From the IMG/VR virus record IMGVR_UViG_3300025767_000007: a DNA stretch of 64,000 bases. One strand, given 5' to 3'. Numbering within the stretch: position 1 is the stretch's first letter; every line of letters starts with the position of its first letter. Below are positions 19,869 through 52,963 of this stretch, piece by piece. This stretch comes from an uncultured virus (IMG/VR IMGVR_UViG_3300025767_000007). Lineage: Duplodnaviria; Heunggongvirae; Uroviricota; Caudoviricetes. Position numbers and translations under genes: made by a program. The notes below the pieces were generated by a model, which had not been told where the DNA came from, ran no database searches, and saw only the letters and a program-made list of their open reading frames with translations.

Positions 19869-20876
19869 TTAAGTTTGTGTCCATACAACAGGGTTTGATA
19901 CTACTGGTGTTGGAATATCTAACGTTACGTTGTTTTCTGTAACACTATTAGGATGGACCATAGTTGCTATTACAGAAAGTTCACCTGTTGATGCAAGTGT
20001 TGTACTAGAGCTATCTAGTACTATTCTTAAGTTAAGATACTTACTATCAGTACCATAAACTCTTCCATAAACTTTTACTCGTATACTTGAATAATTACCA
20101 TAACCAGCATAGCCGCCATATCCGCCATATCCGCCATATCCGCCATATCCGCCGCCGCCACCAGCTGGGCTAGTGTAGAGTAGTTTTTCTGTTGTATTCA
20201 GTTCACTAAATCCAATGTCTTGTGTAATACCAACAGAATTTAAACTTGCTATTGTATCAACACTAAGTTTAAGAATACCCATGTCTGCAAATAATGTTTT
20301 CCATGTTGTATAACCCGAACCGCTTCCGTTAGTATATGCAAGTTCTAATCTAATATCACCACCAGCATTAAAGAAGTGTCTAGCACTTTCATAGTAAGCT
20401 GGGTCAGTACCAAACAAATAATCTAGTTGTGTTTCAAACTTATTTGTCCAGCCTGTGGTGCTACTAAAAGTGTTTAATGTAGTTAATTGTGTTAAGTTTG
20501 GATCTACTTCGTTGCGTTTAATTCTTGCTAATTCTAGTAAATCATGAGCAGTATTAAAAAAATCTGCTGTAATTTTTCCGCCTCTAGAAGTTACAACTAG
20601 CTCGTCATCTGAAGCATCTGTCCTGTATGTGCTAATATTAATTCTATTAACAAGTTCGTTAGCATAAGAAGATGTAACCTTATCTCCTCTTGCTACAGTC
20701 GGTACTTCTGTTCCACCCCAACCCCAACGAATATCATCTTGAACTGCGGCGTCATCTGTTTCTGATGGACCTTCATTTGCATGTGTATCTGCAAATAGTT
20801 CATTTACTTGATCTGAAAGATTATTAAAATAATCTTTCGTAATTTTATCGCCACGGCTATTTGGGTGCCCAGACAT
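19869..20876 (-). CDS. putative virion structural protein with Gly-Gly-Tyr repeat insert
   Basis: Repeated RGDKIT/RGDKVT/RGGKIT motif, RHFFNAGG, GGY tract. Lies in the baseplate operon. Confidence 0.6.
   Translation of the reverse strand: MSGHPNSRGDKITKDYFNNLSDQVNELFADTHANEGPSETDDAAVQDDIRWGWGGTEVPTVARGDKVTSSYANELVNRINISTYRTDASDDELVVTSRGGKITADFFNTAHDLLELARIKRNEVDPNLTQLTTLNTFSSTTGWTNKFETQLDYLFGTDPAYYESARHFFNAGGDIRLELAYTNGSGSGYTTWKTLFADMGILKLSVDTIASLNSVGITQDIGFSELNTTEKLLYTSPAGGGGGYGGYGGYGGYGGYAGYGNYSSIRVKVYGRVYGTDSKYLNLRIVLDSSSTTLASTGELSVIATMVHPNSVTENNVTLDIPTPVVSNPVVWTQT
20113..20160 (-). repeat. 9-bp tandem repeat (ccgccatat x4) encoding GGY repeats
   Basis: Four exact units at 20113-20148, followed by ccgccgccgcca. 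Confidence 0.95.
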
Positions 20877-21988
20877 TATCTGACTCCTACTGTTGCCTCA
20901 ATTAATCCAATACCTTCGCCATCATAATCTTGTAAACTACGGCCAATGATACTAAAAAGAGGATCGTTTTCTGTTGCTTTTCTTGCAACTCCTGGTGTTT
21001 CACTTGCTACTAATCTATCTCCTTTTCCAATTGGTCCTGAGACTTTAGTAGGAATACGTCCTGCTACTGCAATTGGCATTGCATGTTTCTCTCTTTTCTT
21101 TCTTGCGTTTAACAAGTAAGCTGGTCTAGTTGATACCACACCAAAGATACTTGGATCTCCGTCAAACATAGTGCTAGTTACTTCGTTAACACCGCCTAGT
21201 GCAACCAATGTGCCTGGCTCGTATGTTGCATCACCTACATAAATTTCTGCAACGTCAGCAAATTCTGCTTCAACTGCTACACCACGAATTTTAAAATCAC
21301 TACTTGAATTTAAATTTAATCCTTTTCCAATTATACCAGTTTGGTTATAATCTCCAGATCCTAAATCGGCATCTACGCCACCTGCGTCTGCTCCGCAAAA
21401 TGATTGTAAATTTTCACTTGCATGTGGTACATAATCTGCATCACTACTTAAAATAGCAACAAGTATTCCGTTGACTTTAAGTTTAATTGCAGGATGTATG
21501 TTTAAGTTAGGTGTTGCATCAACATAATTTGTATCTTTAATTGTTTCATTTATAACAACGCCTGTTTCTAATCCTGGAACTCCAAAAACATTGTTTAACT
21601 GAATAAACGCAGTTCCGTCCCACATAAACACACCTTGGTTTGCTGTATCAAACCACATATCTCCTTTAGCTCGTTTAACTAAAGAGGGTTGAGTACCAAC
21701 AAACAAGTGCCCTACTGGCTTCCAAACTCCACCGCCTTGGTAAATGTTTATTTGTTTTGGTTCTCCAACTACATCGGTATTTCTATACCAAATTTGACCA
21801 ACGATAGGGTTGGCTGGTTCGTCGTTACTATTGAAATTTTCTAATAGTTTGACAAAGTTTTCAGCAATTAATTCTCCATATCCTAAATAGTTTTTTCCTA
21901 AAAGATTTAATCCATACGTTGTATCGATTTCACCTTCTTGGATATTTAGGAGAATTGTGCCATCTGTTTTGTTTACTTCATATGCCAT
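20876..21988 (-). CDS. baseplate/short-fibre-like virion protein with C-terminal peptidase-G2/chaperone-like domain
   Basis: N-terminal L.LLGKNY.GYGE..AENFVKLLENF...P.NP..GQIWY. C-terminal ADVAEIY...GVVST.PAYLLN...AGRIP.KV...KGD.LV. Confidence 0.6.
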   Translation of the reverse strand: MAYEVNKTDGTILLNIQEGEIDTTYGLNLLGKNYLGYGELIAENFVKLLENFNSNDEPANPIVGQIWYRNTDVVGEPKQINIYQGGGVWKPVGHLFVGTQPSLVKRAKGDMWFDTANQGVFMWDGTAFIQLNNVFGVPGLETGVVINETIKDTNYVDATPNLNIHPAIKLKVNGILVAILSSDADYVPHASENLQSFCGADAGGVDADLGSGDYNQTGIIGKGLNLNSSSDFKIRGVAVEAEFADVAEIYVGDATYEPGTLVALGGVNEVTSTMFDGDPSIFGVVSTRPAYLLNARKKREKHAMPIAVAGRIPTKVSGPIGKGDRLVASETPGVARKATENDPLFSIIGRSLQDYDGEGIGLIEATVGVR

Positions 21989-41080: not shown

Positions 41081-42049
41081 ATGACAACTAATCTAAAAAA
41101 CGTATACTTAAAGAATAAAGACTTACTTCTTCAGATCCATAAAAGCAAACTTCAGTTTTGCTGGAAAGAAGATAAGAAATATAGTGATTATGATATCATT
41201 TTGCATGACCTAAAACATTTCCACAATCGCAAGACTATAGCATTTCCGGAAGGAGCTCTTAAGATTGCAAAGGCTACACGAGCCAAAAGATTTGCAGAAG
41301 CACTTCATAAAGAGGCTATTAAGCAATGGGAAGAAGAAGGAAAACGTCCTAGCAAGAAACCAAAAATGGATCAATTTATGGTACCAACAAAATCTATTTC
41401 TAACGATGAAATAGTGGTTAGGCTCATGGATTGGGATCATATTCCAGAAGAACCAGGACGTAAGACTAATCCTAAAACACCTGCAGATTACAGAGCTAAA
41501 GTTAACTTTCCTCCTTTTAAACATTATGTTAAGGAAGACGGAGAGTGGAAAGAAGTAGTTCGCAGTCATTGGAAAGGTGATTTAGAAACTGGCCACTTTA
41601 GTATTGATCATGGAAAGATTACTAATAGGCTTGGCGCAATGTTTCTAAAATTATGTGAACGTTATAGTTTACGAAGTAACTGGAGAGGATATAGTTATAT
41701 TGACGAAATGAGAGGACAGGCTCTTATACAATTAACGCAGATTGCTTTACAATTTGATGAGAGCAAGAGTCAAAACCCGTTTGCTTATTATACTGCCGCT
41801 GTAACTAATAGTTTTACTCGAGTATTAAATGTTGAAAAGAGACAACGTGATATACGTGACGATTTACTACAAGAAGCAGGGCAAACTCCAAGTTGGACCA
41901 GACAAGCAGAGCATATTGAAAAAGTAAAAGCAGAAGTTGAAAGAGCTCTTGCTTTAAAAGAAGCAGATAGAGCAGAAAAAGAAAAAGAAGAAAAAGAACC
42001 ATTATCAGAGATGATTGGACATAATAATCCACCACCAGAATTTCAGTAA
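41081..42049 (+). CDS. late transcription sigma factor (T4 gp55-like)
   Basis: YLKNKDLL, NWRGYSYIDEM, FDESKSQNPFAYYT, SF.R.LN.EKRQ. Confidence 0.85.
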   Translation: MTTNLKNVYLKNKDLLLQIHKSKLQFCWKEDKKYSDYDIILHDLKHFHNRKTIAFPEGALKIAKATRAKRFAEALHKEAIKQWEEEGKRPSKKPKMDQFMVPTKSISNDEIVVRLMDWDHIPEEPGRKTNPKTPADYRAKVNFPPFKHYVKEDGEWKEVVRSHWKGDLETGHFSIDHGKITNRLGAMFLKLCERYSLRSNWRGYSYIDEMRGQALIQLTQIALQFDESKSQNPFAYYTAAVTNSFTRVLNVEKRQRDIRDDLLQEAGQTPSWTRQAEHIEKVKAEVERALALKEADRAEKEKEEKEPLSEMIGHNNPPPEFQ

Positions 42050-42600: not shown

Positions 42601-43623
42601 ATGAATCAACCTTTTAAGAAAGCCGCATATTTTACGGATATTCATTTTGGTTTAAGAAATAACAGTCGAGCTCATAATGATGACTGTGAAAACTTTATCA
42701 AGTGGTTTGTAGAAGAAGCTCACAAAGAAGGATGCGAAACTTGTATCTTTGGTGGCGATTGGCATAATAGCCGTAGTAATATTAATGTTAGTACACTTAA
42801 TTATACTACCACAAATTTAGAATACTTGAGCCAAAACTTTGAAAATGTCTATGTGATTATGGGCAATCATGACTTGGCTTATAGAGAAAAACGAGAAATT
42901 AATTCTCTGCCTTTTGGCGAATATTTGACAAATTTGCATATTATTAATGAAATTACTACTATTGGTGACATGACTATTGTTCCTTGGTTAGTTGGTGAAG
43001 AATGGACAGAAATGAGAAATATACATTCTCGTTACATATTTGGACACTTTGAACTTCCTCGTTTTAAAATGAATGCTATGGTAGAGATGCCGGACCATGG
43101 AGGGCTAAATGGGGATCATTTTCCTAATCAGGAATTTGTATTCAGCGGACACTTTCATAAGAGGCAAAGAAGAGGAAATGTAATCTACACAGGTAATGCT
43201 TTCCCTCACAATTTTGCTGATGCAGGTGATGACGAAAGAGGCATGATGATACTTCCTTATGGTGGAGAGTATGTATTTAGACAGTGGCCAGATGCTCCTA
43301 AATTTAAAACTATGTCGTTGACACATGCAATTGACAACCATACACATTTGTTTGATCATACAACTTTTGCTCGTATTACTATTGATGTTGATATTAGTTA
43401 CGAAGAAGCATCTTATATCAAAGAAAAGTGGTATAATGAATATGGAATGCGTGAATTATCTCTTATACCAAATGCTAAGGAAGAACATTCTAAAGAATGG
43501 GATGGCGGAGAAATTAAATTTGAAAGTGTTGATGCTATTGTTCTAAATCAAATTCAATCTATTGATTCTGATGTAATAGATAGAAAGTTATTAACAGAAA
43601 TATACCAAGGATTGAATAAATGA
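42601..43623 (+). CDS. recombination nuclease subunit (T4 gp47 / Mre11-SbcD-like)
   Basis: TDIHFG, GDW, GNHD, GHFE, SGHFH. Confidence 0.9.
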   Translation: MNQPFKKAAYFTDIHFGLRNNSRAHNDDCENFIKWFVEEAHKEGCETCIFGGDWHNSRSNINVSTLNYTTTNLEYLSQNFENVYVIMGNHDLAYREKREINSLPFGEYLTNLHIINEITTIGDMTIVPWLVGEEWTEMRNIHSRYIFGHFELPRFKMNAMVEMPDHGGLNGDHFPNQEFVFSGHFHKRQRRGNVIYTGNAFPHNFADAGDDERGMMILPYGGEYVFRQWPDAPKFKTMSLTHAIDNHTHLFDHTTFARITIDVDISYEEASYIKEKWYNEYGMRELSLIPNAKEEHSKEWDGGEIKFESVDAIVLNQIQSIDSDVIDRKLLTEIYQGLNK

Positions 43624-45389
43624 TTATATTCAAGAATATTACAATAAAAAACTTTATGAGTGTTGGTAATGTTACTCAGGCACTAAACTTAGACAAAGAT
43701 GGTTTGACTCTTGTACTAGGAAATAACTTAGATTTAGGTGGCGATGGAGCTCGTAATGGTGTTGGTAAAACAACTATTGTTAATGCTTTGTCTTTTGCAC
43801 TTTATGGTGATGCATTAACTACAATCCGTAAACATAACCTAATTAACAAAACTAATGGCAAGAATATGCTTGTTACATTAGAGTTTGAAAAGAACGGCGA
43901 AAAGTTTAAAATTGAACGTGGACGTAGTCCAAATGTCTTACGTTTTTATATTAACGATAGTAAGTTAGGTGATGTAACAGATGAAGGACAAGGCGAAAAT
44001 AGAGTTACACAAAAAGAAATAGATAGGCTCATTGGCATGGGCAAAGAAATGTTCAAACACCTTGTTGCATTGAACACTTATACACAACCTTTCTTATCTT
44101 TACGGGCCAATGAACAACGAGAAATTATTGAAGAACTTCTCGGTATTACACAACTTAGTGAAAAAGCTGACATACTTAAAGAAGGTATTAGAAATACTAA
44201 AGATCTGGTTAAAGATGAAGAATCAAGGCATCGTGCATTAGAAGAAAGTAATGCTAGAGTTAAGTCTACTATTGACGATTTAAAAAGACGTAGCAGGACA
44301 TGGGCTAAGAAAAAAGATGCTGACTTAACTAATTTGTTGGCTGGTATTACAGAGTTAGAATCAACAGATATTGATGCAGAACTTGCATCTCACAGGGCAT
44401 TAGAAGTTTTTAAAGAAAACGATAGTCGCCTAAAGTTAGCCAATAAAGAACTTGCTTCTAGACAGAGTAATATTAATAAACTTAAGGAATCTCTTAAATT
44501 ATCTGAAAATAATTTAGTATCTTTAAAGGATAATAAGTGCCATACTTGTGGTACTAAGTTACAAGACGAAAAGCAAAAAACTTTAATAACAGAATCTAAC
44601 AATATGCTAAATCAGATTAAAGATGCTCTTAAAGAAGAACATGGTCTTTTAGCACAAGCAGATATTGCTGTTCGAGATATTGGAGATATGGGTACAAGAC
44701 CTAGTACAAAATATTTAAATATCGAAGAAGCAATTAAACACCAGAGTAATTTAGAAAACTTAAAAAGTATTCTGGTAAACAAGGAAGGAGAGGCAGATCC
44801 TTACCAGGAGCAAATAGAAGCTCTTGAAACTACTGCCCTTGCAGAAATATCATGGGAGAACATGAATGAGTATACAAAACTGCAAGAACACCAAGAATTT
44901 TTGTTAAAATTGCTTACTAACAAGGACTCATTTGTCCGTAAACGCATTATCGAGCAGAATTTAGCATATTTGAACCACAGACTAGGTTATTACTTGGATA
45001 AGTTACAATTACCACATGAAGTGGAATTTAAAAGCGACTTAGAGGTTGACATTACTCAATTGGGTCAAACATTTGATTTTGACAACCTAAGCAGGGGAGA
45101 ACGTAACAGGTTAATCTTAGCTCTAAGTTGGAGTTTTAGAGATGTGTATGAGAGTTTCACAGAACCTATGAATTTATTGTTTATTGATGAATTAGTAGAC
45201 TCAGGCATGGACCAAGTTGGTATTGAGTTATCAATGAGTGTCTTAAAGAAAATGGGCCGTGAAATGAAACGTAATGTCTTTTTAATCAGCCACCGAGACG
45301 AACTCGCTGGTCGTGTAAACAACGTACTAATGGTTGTTAAGCAAAATGGTTTTACCGAGCTTGACAATTCTACTGAAATTATTTTATAA
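43620..45389 (+). CDS. recombination ATPase (T4 gp46 / Rad50-SbcC-like)
   Basis: KNFMSVG, NGVGKTT, CHTC hook, LSRGE, FIDE, ISH. Confidence 0.92.
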   Translation: MIIFKNITIKNFMSVGNVTQALNLDKDGLTLVLGNNLDLGGDGARNGVGKTTIVNALSFALYGDALTTIRKHNLINKTNGKNMLVTLEFEKNGEKFKIERGRSPNVLRFYINDSKLGDVTDEGQGENRVTQKEIDRLIGMGKEMFKHLVALNTYTQPFLSLRANEQREIIEELLGITQLSEKADILKEGIRNTKDLVKDEESRHRALEESNARVKSTIDDLKRRSRTWAKKKDADLTNLLAGITELESTDIDAELASHRALEVFKENDSRLKLANKELASRQSNINKLKESLKLSENNLVSLKDNKCHTCGTKLQDEKQKTLITESNNMLNQIKDALKEEHGLLAQADIAVRDIGDMGTRPSTKYLNIEEAIKHQSNLENLKSILVNKEGEADPYQEQIEALETTALAEISWENMNEYTKLQEHQEFLLKLLTNKDSFVRKRIIEQNLAYLNHRLGYYLDKLQLPHEVEFKSDLEVDITQLGQTFDFDNLSRGERNRLILALSWSFRDVYESFTEPMNLLFIDELVDSGMDQVGIELSMSVLKKMGREMKRNVFLISHRDELAGRVNNVLMVVKQNGFTELDNSTEIIL

Positions 45390-45399
45390 GGAGAATAAT

Positions 45400-45594
45400 A
45401 TGACAGACCCAAGAGATTCAGCTCACCATATAGCACTAATGGAAAATATGGATACTTATATGGCAGAGAACAGAAAGTTTGTAGAAAAGGGAGTTAAGGC
45501 TTCTGCAACTAGAGCTCGTAAAGCTCTTCAGGCTATTGCTGTTGCTGTTAAAGAAAGACGTAAAGAAATCACAGAAGAGAAAAACGCACTTTAA
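45400..45594 (+). CDS. small basic protein, histone H1-like Hc1 family-like
   Basis: KGVKASATRARKAL...K..RKEI. AGGAG RBS before ATG 45400. Confidence 0.6.
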   Translation: MTDPRDSAHHIALMENMDTYMAENRKFVEKGVKASATRARKALQAIAVAVKERRKEITEEKNAL

Positions 45595-46106
45595 TGCCAA
45601 GTAAAAGTAAAACTAAAGGATCAAGTTTTGAGAGGGAGGTTGCAACACATCTCTCAGAAATTTACAACGAAAGTTTTGTAAGAGTTCCAAACTCAGGAGC
45701 TTTTGTTGGAGGAATGAATCAGGCTCGTAAAAGCTATCTAAGTGAAGAACAAATTAGAGGCTTTAAAGGAGATATTATTCCTGGTCCTAGTTTTCCTTTA
45801 TTGGTATTTGAATGCAAATTTTATGCAGACTTTCCTTTCCATCAGTTACTTCAAAATACGGACGTACTGATATTAGATGACTGGATAAATCAAACTATAG
45901 ACTGTATGGATGATGGCGACTTGGGACTTCTTTGTATGAAGTTTAATAGAAAAGGTCGTTATGTTGCATACGAGGACAAGTTTAAATTTAAGACAACAAG
46001 ATCTATAAACTATAAAAATTGGCTCATAACAGAATACGATTCCTTTTGGGAATTGAATGTAGAACAAGTAAAAACATACTCAAAACTCACAGAGACCATC
46101 TCTTAG
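45594..46106 (+). CDS. Holliday junction resolvase (Hjc-like PD-(D/E)XK)
   Basis: SKTKGSSFEREVA, R.P.SGA, GDI, FECK. Confidence 0.8.
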   Translation: MPSKSKTKGSSFEREVATHLSEIYNESFVRVPNSGAFVGGMNQARKSYLSEEQIRGFKGDIIPGPSFPLLVFECKFYADFPFHQLLQNTDVLILDDWINQTIDCMDDGDLGLLCMKFNRKGRYVAYEDKFKFKTTRSINYKNWLITEYDSFWELNVEQVKTYSKLTETIS

Positions 46107-46109
46107 ACA

Positions 46110-46660
46110 CATTGGCAAGCTATCTACTGATAGGTTAGTGCAAGCCGGTTATATTGCACCCATAAAATCTGGATCAATTAAGGATCGCAGAGGACGGAAG
46201 TTCTGAGCAGTAGCAGAGACATATCACCACTATCCTTGACAGGACGTAGTTCAAACAGCATGAAACTGGACTGGTGTATGTATAGTATTGCTAAAATGAG
46301 TGGGCTCTGGTGAACTATTACAACCCACATAATAATAGAATTGGTTTGGTTCGGTTCTATTGTTTGCGTTATTACAGTCGAGAGTAAAAGGGTACAGCGT
46401 AACCGCCCTAACATAATATGTTTCTTTAACCAAAGTGTGGTACGAGTCTGGGTCAAGACAAACCATTTACCTTAGCCCCCAAACGGGGCTAAGTGTGGAT
46501 ACTCATCCAGCTCAAGCTAAACTTAAAAATATTAGAGTCAAACTTATATAATAAAAACTATGTGTTATCGTTTGAAATATAAAATTGAATGAGTAGAGCA
46601 ACGCGATACGATATTCATGGACGAAGTATTCGTCCTGTAACTGATTCTTAACAATGTTAA
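46110..46660 (+). ncRNA. candidate large structured non-coding RNA, family unknown
   Basis: ~550-nt gap with no credible CDS, GC-richer than its flanks, more than 10 hairpins, a multibranch domain, a possible pseudoknot and G-U pairs on the + strand. Confidence 0.55.
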
Positions 46661-46673
46661 TGAGCAACTCTGG

Positions 46674-46919
46674 CTAACGCATCTGATTAGCAATACCCTT
46701 TTTACCATACATTGTATCTATCTTCTCTTTAACTACTTCTGATAAGATTACTCTGTCAGTATATGGCATATCCCATACAACTTGTATAGGGTTGCTACTC
46801 CAAACACTTAAATTACATATATCTTGGGTTAGGGCTCTTGACTCAGATTCAAAACTTTCGATATACTTTGTAATCTTATTTGAATCAGTTCCTAGACTCA
46901 AGAGCCTTCGGAAAAAAAA
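46674..46919 (-). CDS. -1 frame extension ('T' ORF) of tail assembly chaperone; gp51-like position
   Basis: No ATG start. Frame open through the T8 run overlapping the end of the upstream gene. Confidence 0.65.
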   Translation of the reverse strand, partial: FFFRRLLSLGTDSNKITKYIESFESESRALTQDICNLSVWSSNPIQVVWDMPYTDRVILSEVVKEKIDTMYGKKGIANQMR

Positions 46920-47791
46920 CTTGTTGGATCAAAAAGCATATCTGTTTTGTATTCTTCTTGGCAAAAATCACATTTAGCTGAAACTTCTCTGATAATTCCA
47001 AATTCTTGGAATGCTTTTAATTCTGTTTCTAACCTATCAACTGAGCCTCTGTCGAGGTTACCCAACCAGTCAGCAATAAATTTTACATCAGTTATTTCTT
47101 GTGGTTCTGCTTCTCCGGTACCTGGGATAACAACTTTAAGAATTGCGCCAATCATTAAGTCATGACTTAGATCAACTAATTGAGCAAAGCCTGCATTTGC
47201 AATTTCAGTTTGTTTTTCTACTGGTTCTTCTCGTTGTTCACTTGACTGCAATGCTCTCATTGAATCAAATTGCATTCGTAGTAAACGTGATTGATCTTTT
47301 AAGTTATAAGGTCTTAGATGTACTTCTAAGTTATTTGCAAGTTTCACGATGCCTAATTTAGCTGGAATTGGCTTTAATGTACCAATTATCTGTCCTAAAC
47401 TTACATTTATTCGTTGAGACTTACCATCAGACTCGTTACAGCCATGACTGATATCCATTGGCATATCGTCTCCGTAACTTGCCATTTTAACTGCAACTAA
47501 AATCATATCAACATCTGCTGACGGAACTTCATCAACATCAGCAATGTCTGGACAAGAACTTTTGATTACACCTCTCATTGCTTCACCGTTAAATAAAGCG
47601 TCAGGGTTTTTAAGGCGTAATTCGTCTTTTGCAGTCATTGGATATATTGCAAGTTCCCCGCTTTCAGTTAACTTAGGTGGCTGTTTATAGTATCTTCCAT
47701 TAGAAGGAAGAGTAATATATGTTCCAGGTTGCCTAAAATAATCCGATAAAGGGTTAGCAGTTTGCCCGGAAAGTGGGTTTTTATTATCCAT
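46898..47791 (-). CDS. baseplate hub assembly / tail assembly chaperone (T4 gp26-like)
   Basis: NPLS.YFRQP...I.LPS.G.YY, PMTAKDE..LKNPDAL.NG, D.D.IL.A...ASYG, C..C near the end, terminal FF. Confidence 0.75.
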   Translation of the reverse strand: MDNKNPLSGQTANPLSDYFRQPGTYITLPSNGRYYKQPPKLTESGELAIYPMTAKDELRLKNPDALFNGEAMRGVIKSSCPDIADVDEVPSADVDMILVAVKMASYGDDMPMDISHGCNESDGKSQRINVSLGQIIGTLKPIPAKLGIVKLANNLEVHLRPYNLKDQSRLLRMQFDSMRALQSSEQREEPVEKQTEIANAGFAQLVDLSHDLMIGAILKVVIPGTGEAEPQEITDVKFIADWLGNLDRGSVDRLETELKAFQEFGIIREVSAKCDFCQEEYKTDMLFDPTSFFSEGS

Positions 47792-47885: not shown

Positions 47886-50885
47886 ATGGAAGAAGAATTA
47901 AAAGAAGCAATTGGTAAATTAACTGATCAGATTGCTAATATGAATAAACAAACAGGCTCAAGACCTGGTGGAAGTCGTGGATCTACTGCACCTAAAGCTG
48001 ATGCTACTGCTTCGGCAATGGACAAACTAAAAGATGGGGTCAAAGGTACTACTTCAAGTTTAAAGAAAACTGCTGAATCAAACGAAAAACTTATACAAAC
48101 ATCTAAAAAACTTACCTGGGAGCAAAAATCACAAATAAGAGGATTGCAAAATTTTGGTAAAGGATTACTTGACGGAAGTAAAAAAGGACAAGATTCTTTA
48201 AACCAGTTATCCGGAGCTCTAACAAATAGCACAGGAAAAGTTACTAAAGTACTTGGCGCCTTTGCCGCTGGTTTAGGTTTTGCATGGGGAACATTAGAAA
48301 ACTTTGCAGATGCCGCCAGAAGTGCAAGTGGAGCATTAAACTTAGGTGCAGTTGGTGTTGGCTTAATGCAAACACAAAGTATGATGTCTGGACTTGGTAA
48401 AGAGTTTGCAACTGTTATTAATGAAAGTGGTGGTGGTTTTAAGTTATTAGGAGCAAATACAGAAGACGCAGTTAAAAACTTATCTCAAATGTCGAGAGCA
48501 GTTAGAAACGGTTCTTCTATGATGGGCAACCTTACAAAAGCACATGGAGTTTCTGCAAAGTCAGTTAACGAAACAGCTAAGTTAACTGCTCAGTTAGGAC
48601 TTACAGAAAAAGATAGTGCCAGCTTAATGGCCGCTAGTTTAGATGTTGCAAGAAGGTCTGGTGCTTCACAAGAAACAGCAATGCAGACTGCAATTAAAAG
48701 TTATGCTACTACTGCAAAGACAGCTCGAGGATTAAGCGATCAATTTGGTGTTAGTGCCAAGGTAATTATGCAGGCTTCAATGGCTTTCCAGAAATCTATT
48801 TCAGGACAAAGAGCCGCAATGCTTGGAGTAGGAACAGATGCTACTGAAATCCAAGGAGTAATGGGTCAAATGCTTGGTAATCTAAGCCAAGATCAAAGAG
48901 ATAGAGCATCAGCCGCAATAGCCTCAGGAAAAATTGGACAAGCTACTCGTATTGCAACTGAAGGTAAATCTGGAGCAGAAGCAAGTGCAACTGCTGAAAT
49001 GATAAGAATGATATCTGAAGCAAATACTGGAAAAGGTGATGGTACAGTTTTACAAGCTCTTAAAGGTATGGAAAGTGCTTCCTTGAGGCAATTTGCATTC
49101 AGTGAGAACTTTGTGGATCAAAACATGCATGCCGCGGCAGGAATTGGCGCCGCATTTAAACGATTAGGTGATGATGCAGATAAGTCCGGCAAAGATGCTA
49201 AGAAAAATGCAGAAGAAGGTCAAACTACAGAAGCAAAAAACATCCAGTCTCTTACAGAAATGCAAACAGCCGTTGATTATGCTAAAGGATCATTTTGGGG
49301 TCTAGTAGCAGGCGGAGTTGGATTATTAGGATCATTTGTATCGTTAGCGGCCGCAGGTAGTGCCGCCGCAATAGCAATGGGTGGTGGAGGCTTAACAGGA
49401 ATGTTAGGTGGACTTAGCAAAGGACTTAATAAAATAACATCTGGTGCGTTAGGATCATCAGGTAAAGTAGGCGGAGCAGTATCTGGTGCAACCGGAGGAA
49501 TGCTTAGTAAAGCAAAAGGATTGTTAGGAATTGGAGCAGGAGGAGCTTCTGCCACTCAATCTGTACCTGGAATGCCAAGTACTAAAGGAATGTCTACAGC
49601 ATTAGGAGAAACAAAGAGTCTCGGTAAAATGATTTCAGATACAATGAAAGGTATCGGAACAGGCACAGCAAAACTCTTTAAAGGAATTAGCGAAGCTATG
49701 ACATCGTTTGGTAGTGGAATAGCAAACCTTGCTAAAGGAATAGGTAAAGCAATGACATCAATCGGAGCTGGTGCCGCTAACCTCGGAAGTGGATTAGGTA
49801 AAGGAATTGGAAAACTAGTTCAGTATTCATTAGAAGGTATAGGTAAAGGATTAGCCGCAGTATCAAATCCAAAATATTTTATTGGAGCCGCAGTATTAGC
49901 CGCAGTTGGTGGAGCAATGTGGGTTGCTGGTAAAGCATTCCAACAATTTTCAAACATTAATTGGGGAGGAGTTATTGCCGGAGGTATTGCATTAGGAGTA
50001 GTTACTGCTGGTGCCGCATTAATTGGAGCATCTGGTATGGTTGCACCTATTCTACTTGGAGCAGTAGCAATTGGAGTTCTTGGAGCCGCATTAATACCAT
50101 TTGGCTTTGCCGCTAAACTTGCAGGCGAAGGAATGGTAGACTTAGGAAGAGGATTAAGAATAATAGGTGATGTTCCAATTCCAACATTACTTGCTATAGG
50201 TCCTGCATTAGCATTAATGGGAGTTGGTTTAGCCGCACTTTCAGCCGCTGGTGCAGTAAGTTCTTTATTAGGAGCATTCCAAGATGAAGGACCAATTGAT
50301 AAAATTGTAAAAATTGCCAAAGCCGCACCAGGTGTTGAACTAATGGCTAAGTCTTTAAGAACATTTGGTATTAACATAATGGTCTTTAACAAAGGACTTG
50401 AAGGTTTAAGTATGACAGCATTAGATGCTTTAGAAGACTTTAATGACGTTGCAAGTAATATATCACAATCTTCTGTAACTGCAATGGCAGATTTAGCAGT
50501 AGCAACTTCGTTACTTGGATTTAATATAAAAGATATAGATTGGAATCAATTAGTTTTACCAGTAGACATTGGTGAAAGATATCATAATTTAGCAGAAGGA
50601 ATGGTAGCAACTGCTGAAGCAATGGATAAGATGCCTAAGCCAGGTATGTGGGACACTATTGTTGCAGGTGTAGGCAACTTGTTTGGAGTAAATGGTGGAG
50701 CACAAGGTAGCTTGACTGAGTCAGTTCAGAAAGAAAGAACCACAACTACAACATACAGCGATGGATCTGTTGATACAAATATAGAGATGATTACAGTTCT
50801 TAAGTCTATTGACGGACATATGGGCAAAGTTACTCAGAATACTAAGAAAGAAGTAACTGTAACAGCACCTCGCTTTGGTAGTTAA
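47886..50885 (+). CDS. tail tape measure protein-like
   Basis: 999 aa, Ala/Gly-rich helical repeats with hydrophobic segments, adjacent to the chaperone gene. Confidence 0.7.
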   Translation: MEEELKEAIGKLTDQIANMNKQTGSRPGGSRGSTAPKADATASAMDKLKDGVKGTTSSLKKTAESNEKLIQTSKKLTWEQKSQIRGLQNFGKGLLDGSKKGQDSLNQLSGALTNSTGKVTKVLGAFAAGLGFAWGTLENFADAARSASGALNLGAVGVGLMQTQSMMSGLGKEFATVINESGGGFKLLGANTEDAVKNLSQMSRAVRNGSSMMGNLTKAHGVSAKSVNETAKLTAQLGLTEKDSASLMAASLDVARRSGASQETAMQTAIKSYATTAKTARGLSDQFGVSAKVIMQASMAFQKSISGQRAAMLGVGTDATEIQGVMGQMLGNLSQDQRDRASAAIASGKIGQATRIATEGKSGAEASATAEMIRMISEANTGKGDGTVLQALKGMESASLRQFAFSENFVDQNMHAAAGIGAAFKRLGDDADKSGKDAKKNAEEGQTTEAKNIQSLTEMQTAVDYAKGSFWGLVAGGVGLLGSFVSLAAAGSAAAIAMGGGGLTGMLGGLSKGLNKITSGALGSSGKVGGAVSGATGGMLSKAKGLLGIGAGGASATQSVPGMPSTKGMSTALGETKSLGKMISDTMKGIGTGTAKLFKGISEAMTSFGSGIANLAKGIGKAMTSIGAGAANLGSGLGKGIGKLVQYSLEGIGKGLAAVSNPKYFIGAAVLAAVGGAMWVAGKAFQQFSNINWGGVIAGGIALGVVTAGAALIGASGMVAPILLGAVAIGVLGAALIPFGFAAKLAGEGMVDLGRGLRIIGDVPIPTLLAIGPALALMGVGLAALSAAGAVSSLLGAFQDEGPIDKIVKIAKAAPGVELMAKSLRTFGINIMVFNKGLEGLSMTALDALEDFNDVASNISQSSVTAMADLAVATSLLGFNIKDIDWNQLVLPVDIGERYHNLAEGMVATAEAMDKMPKPGMWDTIVAGVGNLFGVNGGAQGSLTESVQKERTTTTTYSDGSVDTNIEMITVLKSIDGHMGKVTQNTKKEVTVTAPRFGS

Positions 50886-50913: not shown

Positions 50914-52578
50914 ATGGCATCATGGAAAAAACATTTTAAGATATGGGATCCCCAAGCTGAACAGACTAATAATGGTCCAAGACATCAGGGAGGTAGTTCA
51001 TCTAAGTTCGCTAGTTGGCTACAAGACGTGTACACAGGGCAACCTAACAGAGTTGAACGTTATAGTCAGTATGATCAAATGGATCAAGACTCAGAAGTTA
51101 ATGCGGCCCTAGATACAATTACAGAATTTTGTACTCAGGAGGATCCTTTAACACATCTTCCTTTTGCTTTAAGATGGTCCTCAGACCCAACACCAAGTGA
51201 AAATACAACTATTAATGAAACACTTAAAAAATGGTGTGCTATTAACGGATTTGATCAAAAACTATTTAGAACTTTTAGAAGTGCTATTAAGTTTGGAGAT
51301 CACTTCTTTTTACGTGATCCGGAAACATTTGAATTATATTGGGTAAATCCAGGTGATGTTAAAAGAGCAGTAATTAACGAAGCTGAAGGTCGTAAAGTTG
51401 AACAGTATGTTATTAGTAACTTACACCCTAACTTAGGAGCAAAAGTAGCAACTAAGCCAATTGAAAGTGTTCAATCAATGGCCAATGCAGTACAAGCAGG
51501 ACCAAACAATCAATATAGCGTTTCAAATAGTGCTTATAAAAGTGGTAACACAGGAACCGAAGTTACAGTTGATGCAAAAGATATAATTCATATTAGTTTA
51601 AGCGAAGGATTAGATGCTAACTGGCCTTTTGGAGCAAGTATACTTGATAGTGTTTTTAAAATTTATAAACAAAAAGAATTATTAGAAGATGCGATTATCA
51701 TTTATCGTGTACAAAGAGCACCAGAACGTAGAGTGTTTTATATTGATACAGGTAATTTACCTAGTCATCAAGCAATGGGATTTCTTGAAAGAGTTAAAAA
51801 CGAAATACACCAAAGACGTATTCCTACTAGATCAGGTGGTGGTACTACTATGGATGCAAGTTACAATCCTTTGAGCATTATGGAAGACTTTTTCTTTGCT
51901 CAATCAGCTGACGGTAGAGGAAGTAAAGTTGAAGTATTACCGGGTGGAACAAACTTAGGTGAAATTGACGATTTAAAATTCTTTTCAAACAAATTAATGA
52001 GAGGTTTAAGAATTCCTAGTAGTTATATGCCTACTGGACCTGACGATAGTGCAGTTCAATTAACAGATGGTCGTGTAGGAACAGCATTAATTCAAGAATA
52101 TCGCTTTAATAGATACTGTCAGAGACTCCAAGGTTTAATTATGCCTATGCTATCTAAAGAGTTTAAAACTTTTGTAAAGCATAGGGGCATTAATGTAGAT
52201 ACATCTTCTTTTGAGATTGACATGCTAGAGCCTCAAAACTTTAGTGATTATAGACAAATTGAAGTTAACAATGCAAGGGCTAGTGTGTTTACACAATTAG
52301 CAGAAGTACCTTACATGAGTCATAGATTTAAGTTACAAAAGTTCTTAGGTTTAACTGATGCAGAGTTACTTGAAAATGAAAAACTTTGGTTAGAAGAAAA
52401 TAAAAATCCAACACCAACTGAAAGTGACGAAGAAGCTGGATTTGGTGATATTGGTGGCGGTGCCGGCGGTGGCGGACTAAGTGATGGTGATATGGACTTT
52501 GCCGATGACTTAGAAAATGCAGAACCAGCCGCAGACGATGGTGGCGGTGAATCTGCACCTACAGAACCAGAAGCATAA
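50914..52578 (+). CDS. portal protein (T4 gp20-like)
   Basis: LLEDAIIIYRVQRAPERRVFYIDTGNLP, EDFFF...GRGSKVEVLPGG.NLGEIDDL. Confidence 0.95.
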   Translation: MASWKKHFKIWDPQAEQTNNGPRHQGGSSSKFASWLQDVYTGQPNRVERYSQYDQMDQDSEVNAALDTITEFCTQEDPLTHLPFALRWSSDPTPSENTTINETLKKWCAINGFDQKLFRTFRSAIKFGDHFFLRDPETFELYWVNPGDVKRAVINEAEGRKVEQYVISNLHPNLGAKVATKPIESVQSMANAVQAGPNNQYSVSNSAYKSGNTGTEVTVDAKDIIHISLSEGLDANWPFGASILDSVFKIYKQKELLEDAIIIYRVQRAPERRVFYIDTGNLPSHQAMGFLERVKNEIHQRRIPTRSGGGTTMDASYNPLSIMEDFFFAQSADGRGSKVEVLPGGTNLGEIDDLKFFSNKLMRGLRIPSSYMPTGPDDSAVQLTDGRVGTALIQEYRFNRYCQRLQGLIMPMLSKEFKTFVKHRGINVDTSSFEIDMLEPQNFSDYRQIEVNNARASVFTQLAEVPYMSHRFKLQKFLGLTDAELLENEKLWLEENKNPTPTESDEEAGFGDIGGGAGGGGLSDGDMDFADDLENAEPAADDGGGESAPTEPEA

Positions 52579-52595
52579 AAGGAATAAGTAAAGTT

Positions 52596-52802
52596 ATGAG
52601 ATTTAATGACTTAACAAGAATACAAGATGAAATCGAAGAAGAGATCGATCCTGAGGTAGCATTCTATTCCGACATGCGTAGACACCGTATGACTTTAGAA
52701 CATGTTAACAGGTTGCGTAAACTTCGTGAACTAAGGAAATACGAGCAAAAAACAAGACTTGAAGCCATTACTAAAATGTATCAACGTCCTCCTGCAGTTT
52801 AG
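52596..52802 (+). CDS. small hypothetical protein
   Basis: 68-aa ORF after the portal, with its own TAAGTA motif. Confidence 0.7.
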   Translation: MRFNDLTRIQDEIEEEIDPEVAFYSDMRRHRMTLEHVNRLRKLRELRKYEQKTRLEAITKMYQRPPAV

Positions 52803-52963
52803 CAATATTCTTTAAAAATATTAGATTTTCATTAATAATAAGCCGGTTTGTAAAAATTGTGCCAAAAAGTACAGTTTTTACCCTATAACTACGGCTTTTT
52901 CATGCGTCATTAGTAAGTACTTATTGGTGAATACCCGCCTTTCGCGATAAGGAGAAAAAGAAT

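Follow-up and report, generated by a model that had tools for sequence, protein, structure and literature searches.

A large pseudoknotted RNA of the Polynucleobacter-1 (RF01718) family in a T4-like phage lineage and in Polynucleobacter islands

Introduction

What fills the largest gap between genes in a phage genome? We ask this for one stretch of DNA, 64,000 nucleotides (nt) of an uncultured virus of the Caudoviricetes (IMG/VR record IMGVR_UViG_3300025767_000007), which at its full length we call the window. The window is part of the genome of a T4-like phage. Between open reading frames (ORFs) of at least 80 amino acids (aa), its largest gap spans positions 46107-46673 (567 nt); the second largest, at 52579-52963, measures 385 nt. 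The gap is bordered by two convergent stop codons, that of a 170-aa ORF on the plus strand (at 46106) and that of a 75-aa ORF on the minus strand (at 46674).

A first-pass annotation, made from the letters of the DNA, had rightly singled out this gap as the largest of the window. It proposed that the gap holds a novel large phage non-coding RNA or, alternatively, a structured replication origin. Our results favor the RNA, which belongs to a family that Rfam already lists, Polynucleobacter-1 (RF01718). We consider it very probable that about 46124-46516 on the plus strand is a real, full-length structured RNA of this family. That it acts in trans, and not as a leader, also seems probable. For the two statements jointly we would give a probability of about 0.7.

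Results

The Rfam model covers about one third of the RNA

When the whole window is compared with Rfam 15 (cmscan), RF01718 is the sole match above threshold. It lies on the plus strand and runs through the entire model (positions 1-141 of 141) with 90.7 bits, a gathering score of 37 and an E value of 4.5e-18. Allowing E values up to 10 within 45900-47000 adds just two sub-threshold matches, to CRISPR repeats in the nuclease gene upstream. One of them, an RF01376 look-alike at 46023-46059 (30.1 bits against a cut-off of 37), is single and probably due to chance. The same search yields no match to the models of group I and II introns, RNase P, 6S, riboswitches, GOLLD, ROOL, OLE, HEARO or self-cleaving ribozymes, of which divergent members could score below detection. 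ARAGORN finds 0 tRNA or tmRNA genes in the window. The first-pass annotation had likewise recognized neither a tRNA or tmRNA nor RNase P or a group I/II intron.

The Polynucleobacter-1 motif was described in 2010 (Weinberg et al. 2010, Genome Biol 11:R31, PMC2864571). The table of that paper gives it a "y" as RNA, a "y" as cis-regulatory and a "?" as switch, and lists Burkholderiales and fresh water/estuary as its sources. According to the supplement, the motif was built from 16 representatives, one of them in RefSeq. A full-text literature search on "Polynucleobacter-1" finds the 2010 paper alone and no account of a form of ~400 nt or of a phage setting. The main-text passages of PMC10690425 concern RNA candidates of 29-151 bases, from which those overlapping Rfam were discarded; judging from these passages, it is unlikely that PMC10690425 describes this RNA.

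How far does the RNA extend beyond the catalogued motif? Among eight close relatives of the window, whose nucleases are 94-100% identical, ~46110-46520 is near-invariant and is followed by an AT-rich stretch with insertions and deletions (indels). We gathered viral contigs with a pattern from the motif's conserved core, which gave 67 matches, one of them (L023) due to chance. Similarity between the window element and the other 66 phage loci (67-75%, blastn) starts at 46108-46124; it reaches 46407-46428 in nearly all of them and 46497 or further in many. Forty-five distinct phage sequences are alignable across ~410 nt, and an nhmmer profile of these 45 copies finds one copy in the window, at 46115-46525.

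The same extent is seen outside phages. Of the 120 matches that the pattern has in contigs of bacterial genomes, the phage profile confirms 19 as true homologs. In all 22 bacterial loci examined the profile (416 positions) is matched, starting at position 6-10 (51 in one locus) and ending at 311-409. The original RefSeq example of 2010, at 2130772-2130906 of a Polynucleobacter chromosome (G041), can be aligned with the phage RNA from profile position 8 to 382. Of 118 pattern matches in metagenome contigs, 115 prove to be homologs, 89 of which span nearly the whole profile. In phages as in bacteria, conservation is lost directly 3' of the second of two similar modules (twin modules A and B, Table 1). 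The catalogued 141-position model thus makes up about one third of the conserved element, and because homology to phage, bacterial and metagenome copies extends over ~400 nt, the Rfam model is only a fragment of the real unit. The novelty that the first-pass annotation had claimed is hence lost only in part: the Rfam match ends at 46281, and conservation and covariation cover ~46124-46516. What it had said of a large plus-strand RNA with a pseudoknot stands.

At the sensitivity of a blastn search with word size 11, no cultured phage was found to carry the RNA: 46100-46680 has zero matches in 50,697 GenBank phage records. Nor is the region coding. The longest stop-free frame varies from 36 to 106 codons (median 64) among 67 copies, none being maintained, and the internal ORFs of the gap have zero Pfam or PHROG matches. 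The GC content of the RNA is 0.37-0.45, that of the flanks 0.31-0.39.

Compensatory changes support most helices

Energy by itself is insufficient for the claim of an RNA; it is the comparative data that carry it. The first-pass annotation had named folding against shuffled sequence as a check. The 567-nt gap does fold better than most shuffles, but the effect is modest, with z -2.71 on the plus strand (1 of 100 shuffles as good) and -2.26 on the minus strand (3 of 100).

Our structure model takes the helices of the 5' domain from Rfam; the remainder was derived from compensatory changes in the alignments. Covariation was counted on a sequence-only MAFFT alignment of the 45 distinct phage copies and compared with 500 shuffles. 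The alignments are sequence-based, and the clade of the window stands one column off the majority register in P9, PK2 and P12, which is why RNAalifold found little on MAFFT blocks. Counting the pairs in the majority register resolves this problem. RNAalifold also proposed a closing stem for the whole alignment, UACU/AGUG. We rejected it: its 3' strand overlaps the covarying P12, and its 5' strand pairs with the P3 loop.

In the register of the window, the model has 103 pairs, and 77.1% of the cells are paired versus 68.2% after shuffling (0/500 shuffles), with a covariation score of 0.257 versus 0.117. In the majority register (99 pairs, by column number), 89.0% of the cells are paired versus 77.8% (0/500). 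Doubly changed cells number 528 versus 193 (0/500), and pairs with a double change 43 versus 38.6 (2/500). The covariation score rises to 0.326 versus 0.144 in shuffles, and it is 0.056-0.069 if the partners are slid by 1-3 columns. Conservation and covariation among relatives, which the first-pass annotation had named as a check, therefore speak for an RNA. The choice of strand is right as well: 5 of the 103 pairs in the window model are G-U, and G-U intermediates are frequent among relatives, a content that fits a plus-strand RNA, as had been argued from the window alone and as the Rfam match confirms.

A second test is alignment-free. The 5' strand of each copy is paired either with its own 3' strand or with that of another lineage, and the energies (kcal/mol) are compared. 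Native partners are preferred in P1 (-7.7 vs -3.1), P3, P4, P5 (-6.7 vs -2.6), P6 (-12.0 vs -4.9), PK2 (-8.4 vs -3.8) and P12 (-12.5 vs -8.1). The preference is weaker in P2, P4b, P7 and P9 (-3.5 vs -1.7 in P9). There is no separation for PK0, which is nearly invariant, for PK1, where 4 bp lie in a wide slice, or for P11 and P13.

The helices of RF01718 (P1, P2, P3 and the three-way part, P4) are preserved through compensatory changes. The pairs changed on both sides are 3 of 5 in P1, 4 of 7 in P2, 1 of 4 in P3, 5 of 6 in P4 and 3 of 5 in P4b; P4a is invariant and 100% paired. Further 3', the pair that closes the loop of P9 occurs in five standard types (AU 15, GC 9, UA 9, UG 4, GU 2), with a 3-nt loop in the window clade, and P12 has compensatory AU/CG and CG/GC pairs.

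Several of these helices had been read correctly from the single sequence. The stems gtgcaa/ttgcac, gtggg/cccac, aataatagaatt/ggttctattgtt and cttagcccc/ggggctaag correspond to P1, P5, P6 and P12, all of which covary, and tcct/agga corresponds to P4a. Likewise, the arms of ggacgaa/ttcgtcc covary, although this hairpin (H2) lies outside the RNA core. Of the long stem in the first-pass annotation, the inner part (acata.cacca/tggtg.tatgt) is the covarying P4. Its outer part, agcagta/tattgct, finds no support beyond the window clade, because the P3 loop, which is invariant, consists of GCAGUAGC, and the partner of UGCU is the P4b loop. Beyond the same clade, further readings likewise find no support. 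The 5' arm of ctatc/gatag varies without compensation and overlaps the conserved leader strand of PK0. The cag/ctg hairpin is located inside the P4b loop. Finally, gtct/agac, tggt/acca and tggat/atcca show 40-56% or zero compensatory change and no separation in the swap of strands.

Five long-range or crossing pairings

The model contains five long-range or crossing pairings, formed by PK0, PK1, PK2 and the crossing stems P7 and P8 (Table 1). Homology and covariation support four of them; for the fifth there is one covarying pair per stem. The 5' domain, P1-P4b, is held by PK0 and PK1, two loop-to-strand pairings that are missing from the Rfam model. Among 78 distinct copies, PK0 reads CUACUG/CAGUAG in 63 and CUACCG/CGGUAG in 6; 2 have a U-G pair, 0 a mismatch, and 7 are unreadable. 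In PK1, double changes occur in 4 of 4 pairs, the two central ones of which form in 45 of 45 copies (GC 44/AU 1 and CG 28/UA 17). An extra hairpin of 10-25 nt stands 3' of PK1 in bacterial RNAs (columns ~200-228 of alignment A4) and is absent from phage RNAs.

The 3' domain (P5, P6, P9 and P12) is tied by PK2, with a less-supported crossing core formed by P7 and P8. PK2 is the pseudoknot between tttggtt and aaccaaa that the first-pass annotation had suggested as possible, and its pairing frequency and compensatory changes bear the suggestion out (Table 1). P7 and P8 enclose the most conserved stretch, 46366-46409, and both stems are 100% paired. P7 has one covarying pair (UA 23/CG 22), the rest being invariant; in P8 the covarying pair is GC 26/AU 19.

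Twin modules at the 3' end

The twin modules evolve in concert. In 18 of 22 bacterial copies, both boxes carry the identical variable tetranucleotide, which is one of six kinds. Among 33 haplotypes, modules A and B align locally with a score of 14.7 within one RNA versus 10.0 across RNAs, and 8.6% of the cross-RNA pairs reach the native score. We found no targets complementary to the boxes. The arrangement of module, hairpin and module (26+32+26 nt) could be mistaken for a mini-CRISPR. We rejected this reading, since a conserved hairpin that covaries takes the place of the "spacer" and the two modules are just ~60% alike.

Phage and bacterial settings

The whole unit of ~400 nt is conserved in one T4-like phage lineage and in integrase-bearing islands of Polynucleobacter. 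Among the phages, 66 of 67 copies (window included) share the gene order SbcC, Hc1-like, small nuclease, RNA, convergent 75-aa and baseplate-hub genes; the 67th is interrupted by the end of its contig. Downstream of the RNA, the 75-aa gene is present in 41 phage copies and the baseplate-hub gene in 53, and the Hc1-like gene precedes the nuclease in 43. The RNA begins 9-125 nt after the upstream coding gene. Phage copies of the RNA diverge about as much as the neighbor genes (67-100% identity). The nearest phage record, ~74% complete, contains the RNA once and is 96% identical over the element.

The slot 5' of the phage RNA is held by a SegE-type GIY-YIG nuclease of 141-142 aa (PF19835, E 2.4e-32) in 57 copies and by a PD-(D/E)XK nuclease of 170 aa in 9, which are the window's clade. 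Profile comparison finds the two unrelated. Since two unrelated nucleases share this slot, the RNA is not linked to any single enzyme. Free-standing homing endonucleases could explain the swap of slot nucleases (loci L010-L076).

In Polynucleobacter the RNA is accessory, not housekeeping: 17 of 151 genomes have RF01718 above the cut-off, with 1-2 copies each. Contig 1 of genome G002 has two copies 18 kb apart on the same strand (401229-401366 and 419563-419698), and three more Polynucleobacter genomes have two. The bacterial copies always lie in an island that also encodes an AAA ATPase and two tyrosine recombinases. On the 5' side of the RNA lies a divergent DUF6641 gene (22/22 loci). On the 3' side, 0.45-1.4 kb of variable DNA is followed by a FimB-sized tyrosine recombinase of 188 aa (19 loci) and, beyond it, by two unknown proteins, a clamp-loader-like AAA ATPase and a 424-aa integrase. 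It is probable that Polynucleobacter are the hosts of the phages that carry the RNA.

The gene between the RNA and the 188-aa recombinase varies from island to island (L197-L209, L098, L140, L202), and one and the same family can lie on opposite strands: c9 is on the plus strand in L197 and L204 and on the minus strand in L140, c17 on the minus strand in L098 and on the plus strand in L202. The FimB-sized recombinase may swap or invert the segment between the RNA and itself.

The metagenome copies show the phage and island contexts only; no third recurrent context is seen among the 115 copies. Their upstream neighbors are DUF6641 (44), GIY-YIG (18), PD-(D/E)XK (5), a contig end (33) or short unlabelled ORFs (15).

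Could DUF6641 be a hidden nuclease or a relative of the phage neighbors? Four results rule against it. Comparison by hhalign with the GIY-YIG, PD-(D/E)XK, 75-aa and Hc1-like families gives probabilities of at most 0.3%. The AlphaFold model (pLDDT 83.7) has zero Foldseek matches at E <=0.001, and in VIA-align it has helical matches of Z <=5.5 only. A search of the protein atlas returns its own family only.

Transcripts, 3' flank and neighboring genes

Six metatranscriptome runs hold part of the stretch, and four of them were examined as contigs. Contigs from three of the four span the end of the nuclease gene into the RNA (45951-46291, 45768-46198 and 45847-46440), which is compatible with read-through from the upstream operon. 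In all 4 runs 46441-46683 is uncovered, although contigs cannot show ends. The public runs that hold 45600-47000 are labelled marine, seawater, estuary or viral metagenome; the motif was described from fresh water and estuary.

Past the RNA, the AT-rich spacer has indels and low identity even among copies that are ~90% identical elsewhere, and its GC content of 0.26 recurs elsewhere in the profiled stretch. The pair of hairpins H1 and H2 starts ~70 nt past the RNA. The arms of H2 occur as GAGCGAA/UUCGCUC, GGGCGAA/UUCGCCC, GUGCGAA/UUCGCAC and GAACGAA/UUCGUUC. H1 and H2 are possibly a two-way stop or a stability element for the convergent transcripts.

The sequence TATAAATA, which we take to be the T4 late-promoter consensus, is absent from both strands of the window (10.1 +/- 2.9 occurrences expected). 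CTAAATAA occurs 2 times (8.2 expected), once 20 nt upstream of the minus-strand gene at 20876-21988; neither site is near the RNA. The phage may avoid TATAAATA or rely on another late signal. Bacterial copies of the RNA have a conserved TATAAATA or GCTAAATAAC box (also CTAAATAA) 10-55 nt upstream (L143, L198, L208, L103, L180 and others). If this island box were a T4-type late promoter, infection would switch on the island RNA.

The genes around the RNA are listed with its parts in Table 1. The 170-aa PD-(D/E)XK endonuclease is the "Holliday junction resolvase" of the first-pass annotation; it is listed as context for the RNA only.

Table 1. Parts of the RNA, its 3' flank and neighboring genes, in positions of the window
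Feature	Position	Strand	Basis or remark
Conserved RNA core, ~393 nt	46124-46516	+	nhmmer profile, alignments, covariation
Rfam-catalogued part (helices P1, P2, P3, P4, P4a, P4b)	46133-46281	+	RF01718
PK0 (CUACUG in 5' leader strand with CAGUAG in P3 loop)	46124-46129 with 46208-46213	+	5' strand upstream of Rfam match
PK1 (AGCA in P4b loop with UGCU)	46257-46260 with 46289-46292	+	3' strand beyond Rfam match
Hairpin P5 (gtggg/cccac and inner UG/CA)	46300-46328	+	100% paired; 2/5 pairs compensatory (UA 34/CG 11; AU 43/GC 2)
Hairpin P6 (12 bp, aataatagaatt/ggttctattgtt)	46331-46364	+	10/12 pairs changed on both sides
PK2 (P6 loop, tttggtt, with aaccaaa)	46345-46351 with 46428-46434	+	93.6% paired, 5/7 pairs compensatory (changed on both sides), majority register
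P7 (GCGUUA with UAA.CGC)	46366-46371 with 46400-46406	+	
P8 (AGG with CCU), crossing P7	46389-46391 with 46407-46409	+	
Hairpin P9	46410-46422	+	82% paired, majority register
Twin module A (AAGUGUGG ... UCAAGA)	46433-46458	+	
Hairpin P12 (cttagcccc/ggggctaag), between twin modules	46471-46493	+	96.9% paired, majority register
Twin module B (AAGUGUGG ... UCAAG)	46491-46516	+	Last conserved part of RNA
AT-rich spacer, variable in sequence and length	46521-46584		GC 0.26
Hairpin H1	46587-46616		Conserved in most phage clades
Hairpin H2 (ggacgaa/ttcgtcc)	46619-46635		Conserved in most phage clades, arms covary
Late sigma factor gp55	41081-42049		
SbcD-like and SbcC-like nucleases	42601-45389		
Small basic Hc1-like protein	45334-45594		PF07432, chlamydial histone-like Hc1 family, E 8.7e-11
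170-aa PD-(D/E)XK endonuclease	45594-46106	+	PF24608 PDDEXK_15, E 6.9e-24; PHROG 244 RusA-like resolvase, E 3.6e-18
75-aa ORF, convergent with RNA	46674-46901	-	
Baseplate hub, convergent with RNA	46898-47791	-	PF12322 T4_baseplate, E 1.6e-09
Portal protein	at 50914		

Discussion

What could an RNA of this size do in a phage and in a bacterial island? In the phage, it would be made as the tail of the transcript of the upstream recombination nuclease, or from an unrecognized promoter. The folded RNA would then act in trans; its likeliest role would be that of a binding scaffold or of the RNA component in a ribonucleoprotein. A tentative version of the scaffold, which we hold to be possible at best, is that the twin 3' modules would dock the same partner at two equivalent sites. 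Their concerted change could also hint at the recognition target of the RNA.

Several observations weigh against our reading. First, the shuffle control is uncorrected for shared ancestry of the sequences, and one statistic goes in the opposite direction: in the majority register there are 97 further pair types, versus 110.8 in shuffles. The proposed crossing of P7 and P8 rests on less evidence, one covarying pair per stem. Second, the hairpins P10, P11 and P13 inside the twin modules find no support across the family, from covariation or from the swap of strands. RNAduplex yields scattered, inconsistent sites for a shared internal pairing partner of the modules, and we infer the docking sites from concerted change alone. 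Third, the signals of a separate transcript are weak. Between 45500 and 47000 there are 0 sites for an intrinsic terminator, and H2 has no U run; promoter-like sites number 6 versus 4.7 expected, and none stands out. The metatranscriptome contigs have a depth of 2-9 (3-6 for those that bridge into the RNA), like the flanking genes of both strands, and they carry no strand, end or abundance information, with DNA carry-over possible.

One could also argue that the RNA is a decoy or antidote in the conflict between phage and host. By analogy, the phage copy would neutralize or hijack a system of the island (for example one with DUF6641), or the reverse. Phage-borne mimics of the type III antitoxin RNA (ToxI) offer a model. 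The RNA is found solely on mobile DNA of two opposing kinds, and DUF6641 adjoins it in every one of the 22 genome loci and, among the 82 metagenome copies that retain their upstream side, in 44. The nearest phage record, as far as its ~74% completeness goes, carries the RNA and has neither DUF6641 nor a tyrosine recombinase. We nevertheless think a decoy unlikely. The fixed slot in every phage copy and the neighbor-like divergence point to old vertical inheritance, not to recent capture. In addition, the island proteins have no match to defense families (PADLOC) beyond weak AAA matches, and DUF6641 has no recognizable fold match.

A ribozyme would either free itself, by self-cleavage or self-processing, from the transcript of the nuclease operon at its 3' end, or act on another RNA. 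Catalytic cores typically combine large size with pseudoknots and invariant unpaired stretches, and this RNA is large, has several pseudoknots and contains the invariant unpaired stretches GCAGUAGC, CACUAUCC and GUAAAAGG..ACAGCG. Its start 9-125 nt after a coding gene with no promoter found would suit processing, as would the presence of the same box internally and at the 3' end, where two processing sites could be. Yet Rfam ribozyme families have no match here at E values up to 10, and joints, ends or loose ends are not seen in the metatranscriptome contigs (which cannot show them). On balance a ribozyme is improbable.

Is the RNA instead a leader or riboswitch that senses a signal and controls downstream genes on its strand? 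The cis-regulatory rating in the table of the 2010 paper speaks for this (PMC2864571). In 19 of 22 island loci the variable gene and the 188-aa recombinase do lie downstream on the strand of the RNA, and conserved, largely unpaired junction nucleotides resemble ligand pockets. However, convergent genes face the RNA in each of the 67 phage copies, and the next plus-strand gene of the window begins at 47886, 1.3 kb away. The position of a 5' leader, which is the interpretation of the 2010 authors and lies outside the Rfam definition, is thus not that of the RNA in the phage window. The island gene after the RNA, in turn, varies by locus and lies on either strand, 0.45-1.4 kb from the start of the RNA. 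To our knowledge, ~400 nt with five long-range pairings is also far more than known leaders need. We therefore regard control in cis as quite improbable, and action in trans as the better reading.

It is very unlikely that the twin boxes are programmable target-reading elements, with the RNA as specificity subunit for the adjoining nuclease (phage) or tyrosine recombinase (island). If true, RNA guidance would extend to enzyme families for which no guides are known.

Very little speaks for the replication origin of the first-pass annotation, or for a structured primer RNA like RNA II of ColE1 that would feed the adjacent AT-rich tract, and we consider both highly improbable. There is an AT-rich tract (GC 0.26) 3' of the RNA, the locus lies beside recombination genes, and the islands carry a clamp-loader-like AAA ATPase. 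However, we found no families of direct repeats of at least 9 nt within the element, such as iterons, and no tandem repeats. The AT tract is the least conserved part, changes its length and is matched in GC content elsewhere. The local turn in skew is explained by the convergent orientation of the genes, and selection acts on RNA pairs, G-U included. That the gap is a chance hairpin-rich spacer or a convergent terminator region with no RNA gene, as the modest z-scores on both strands and the resemblance of H2 to a two-way stop signal might suggest, is refuted by the Rfam E value of 4.5e-18 and by hundreds of homologs with compensatory changes.

Rfam has carried the motif since 2010, as a small "probable leader" of a single bacterium. 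Our results indicate that both the RF01718 model and the label "cis-regulatory" need revision. One lineage of T4-like water phages carries the RNA as a fixed component and shares it with mobile islands of Polynucleobacter; since these bacteria can be cultured, the orphan RNA is experimentally tractable.

How does the RNA compare with known systems? With Polynucleobacter-1 as catalogued it shares the helices P1-P4b and a match over the full model. The catalogued motif has 141 positions, whereas the RNA described here has ~400 nt, with an added 5' strand, a 260-nt 3' domain and extra pairings. The motif was described from Burkholderiales as likely cis-regulatory (PMC2864571, table), whereas here it lies in T4-like phages and lacks a gene downstream.

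Like RNA II of ColE1, the RNA is a folded molecule of a few hundred nt followed by DNA that could potentially open. In contrast to RNA II, origin features were not found here and the AT tract is not conserved. The omega RNA of IscB/TnpB (HEARO) and the bridge RNA of IS110 are likewise long structured RNAs beside a small nuclease or recombinase on mobile DNA, and they too have short variable segments inside a conserved fold, to which the twin boxes would correspond. In contrast to these, the neighbors here are GIY-YIG, PD-(D/E)XK and tyrosine recombinase proteins that replace one another, no target complementary to the boxes was found, and there is no Rfam match.

GOLLD, ROOL, OLE and raiA are orphan RNAs whose biochemical function is unknown, and some of them are borne by prophages. 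Like our RNA they measure several hundred nt and have many conserved helices and pseudoknots. They have no Rfam match here at E values up to 10, their architecture differs, and the RNA described here goes with T4-like phages and Polynucleobacter islands. It is rare for a large, intricately folded RNA to have no known function, and earlier cases, such as RNase P, tmRNA and the HEARO/omega RNAs, proved to be catalysts or guides.

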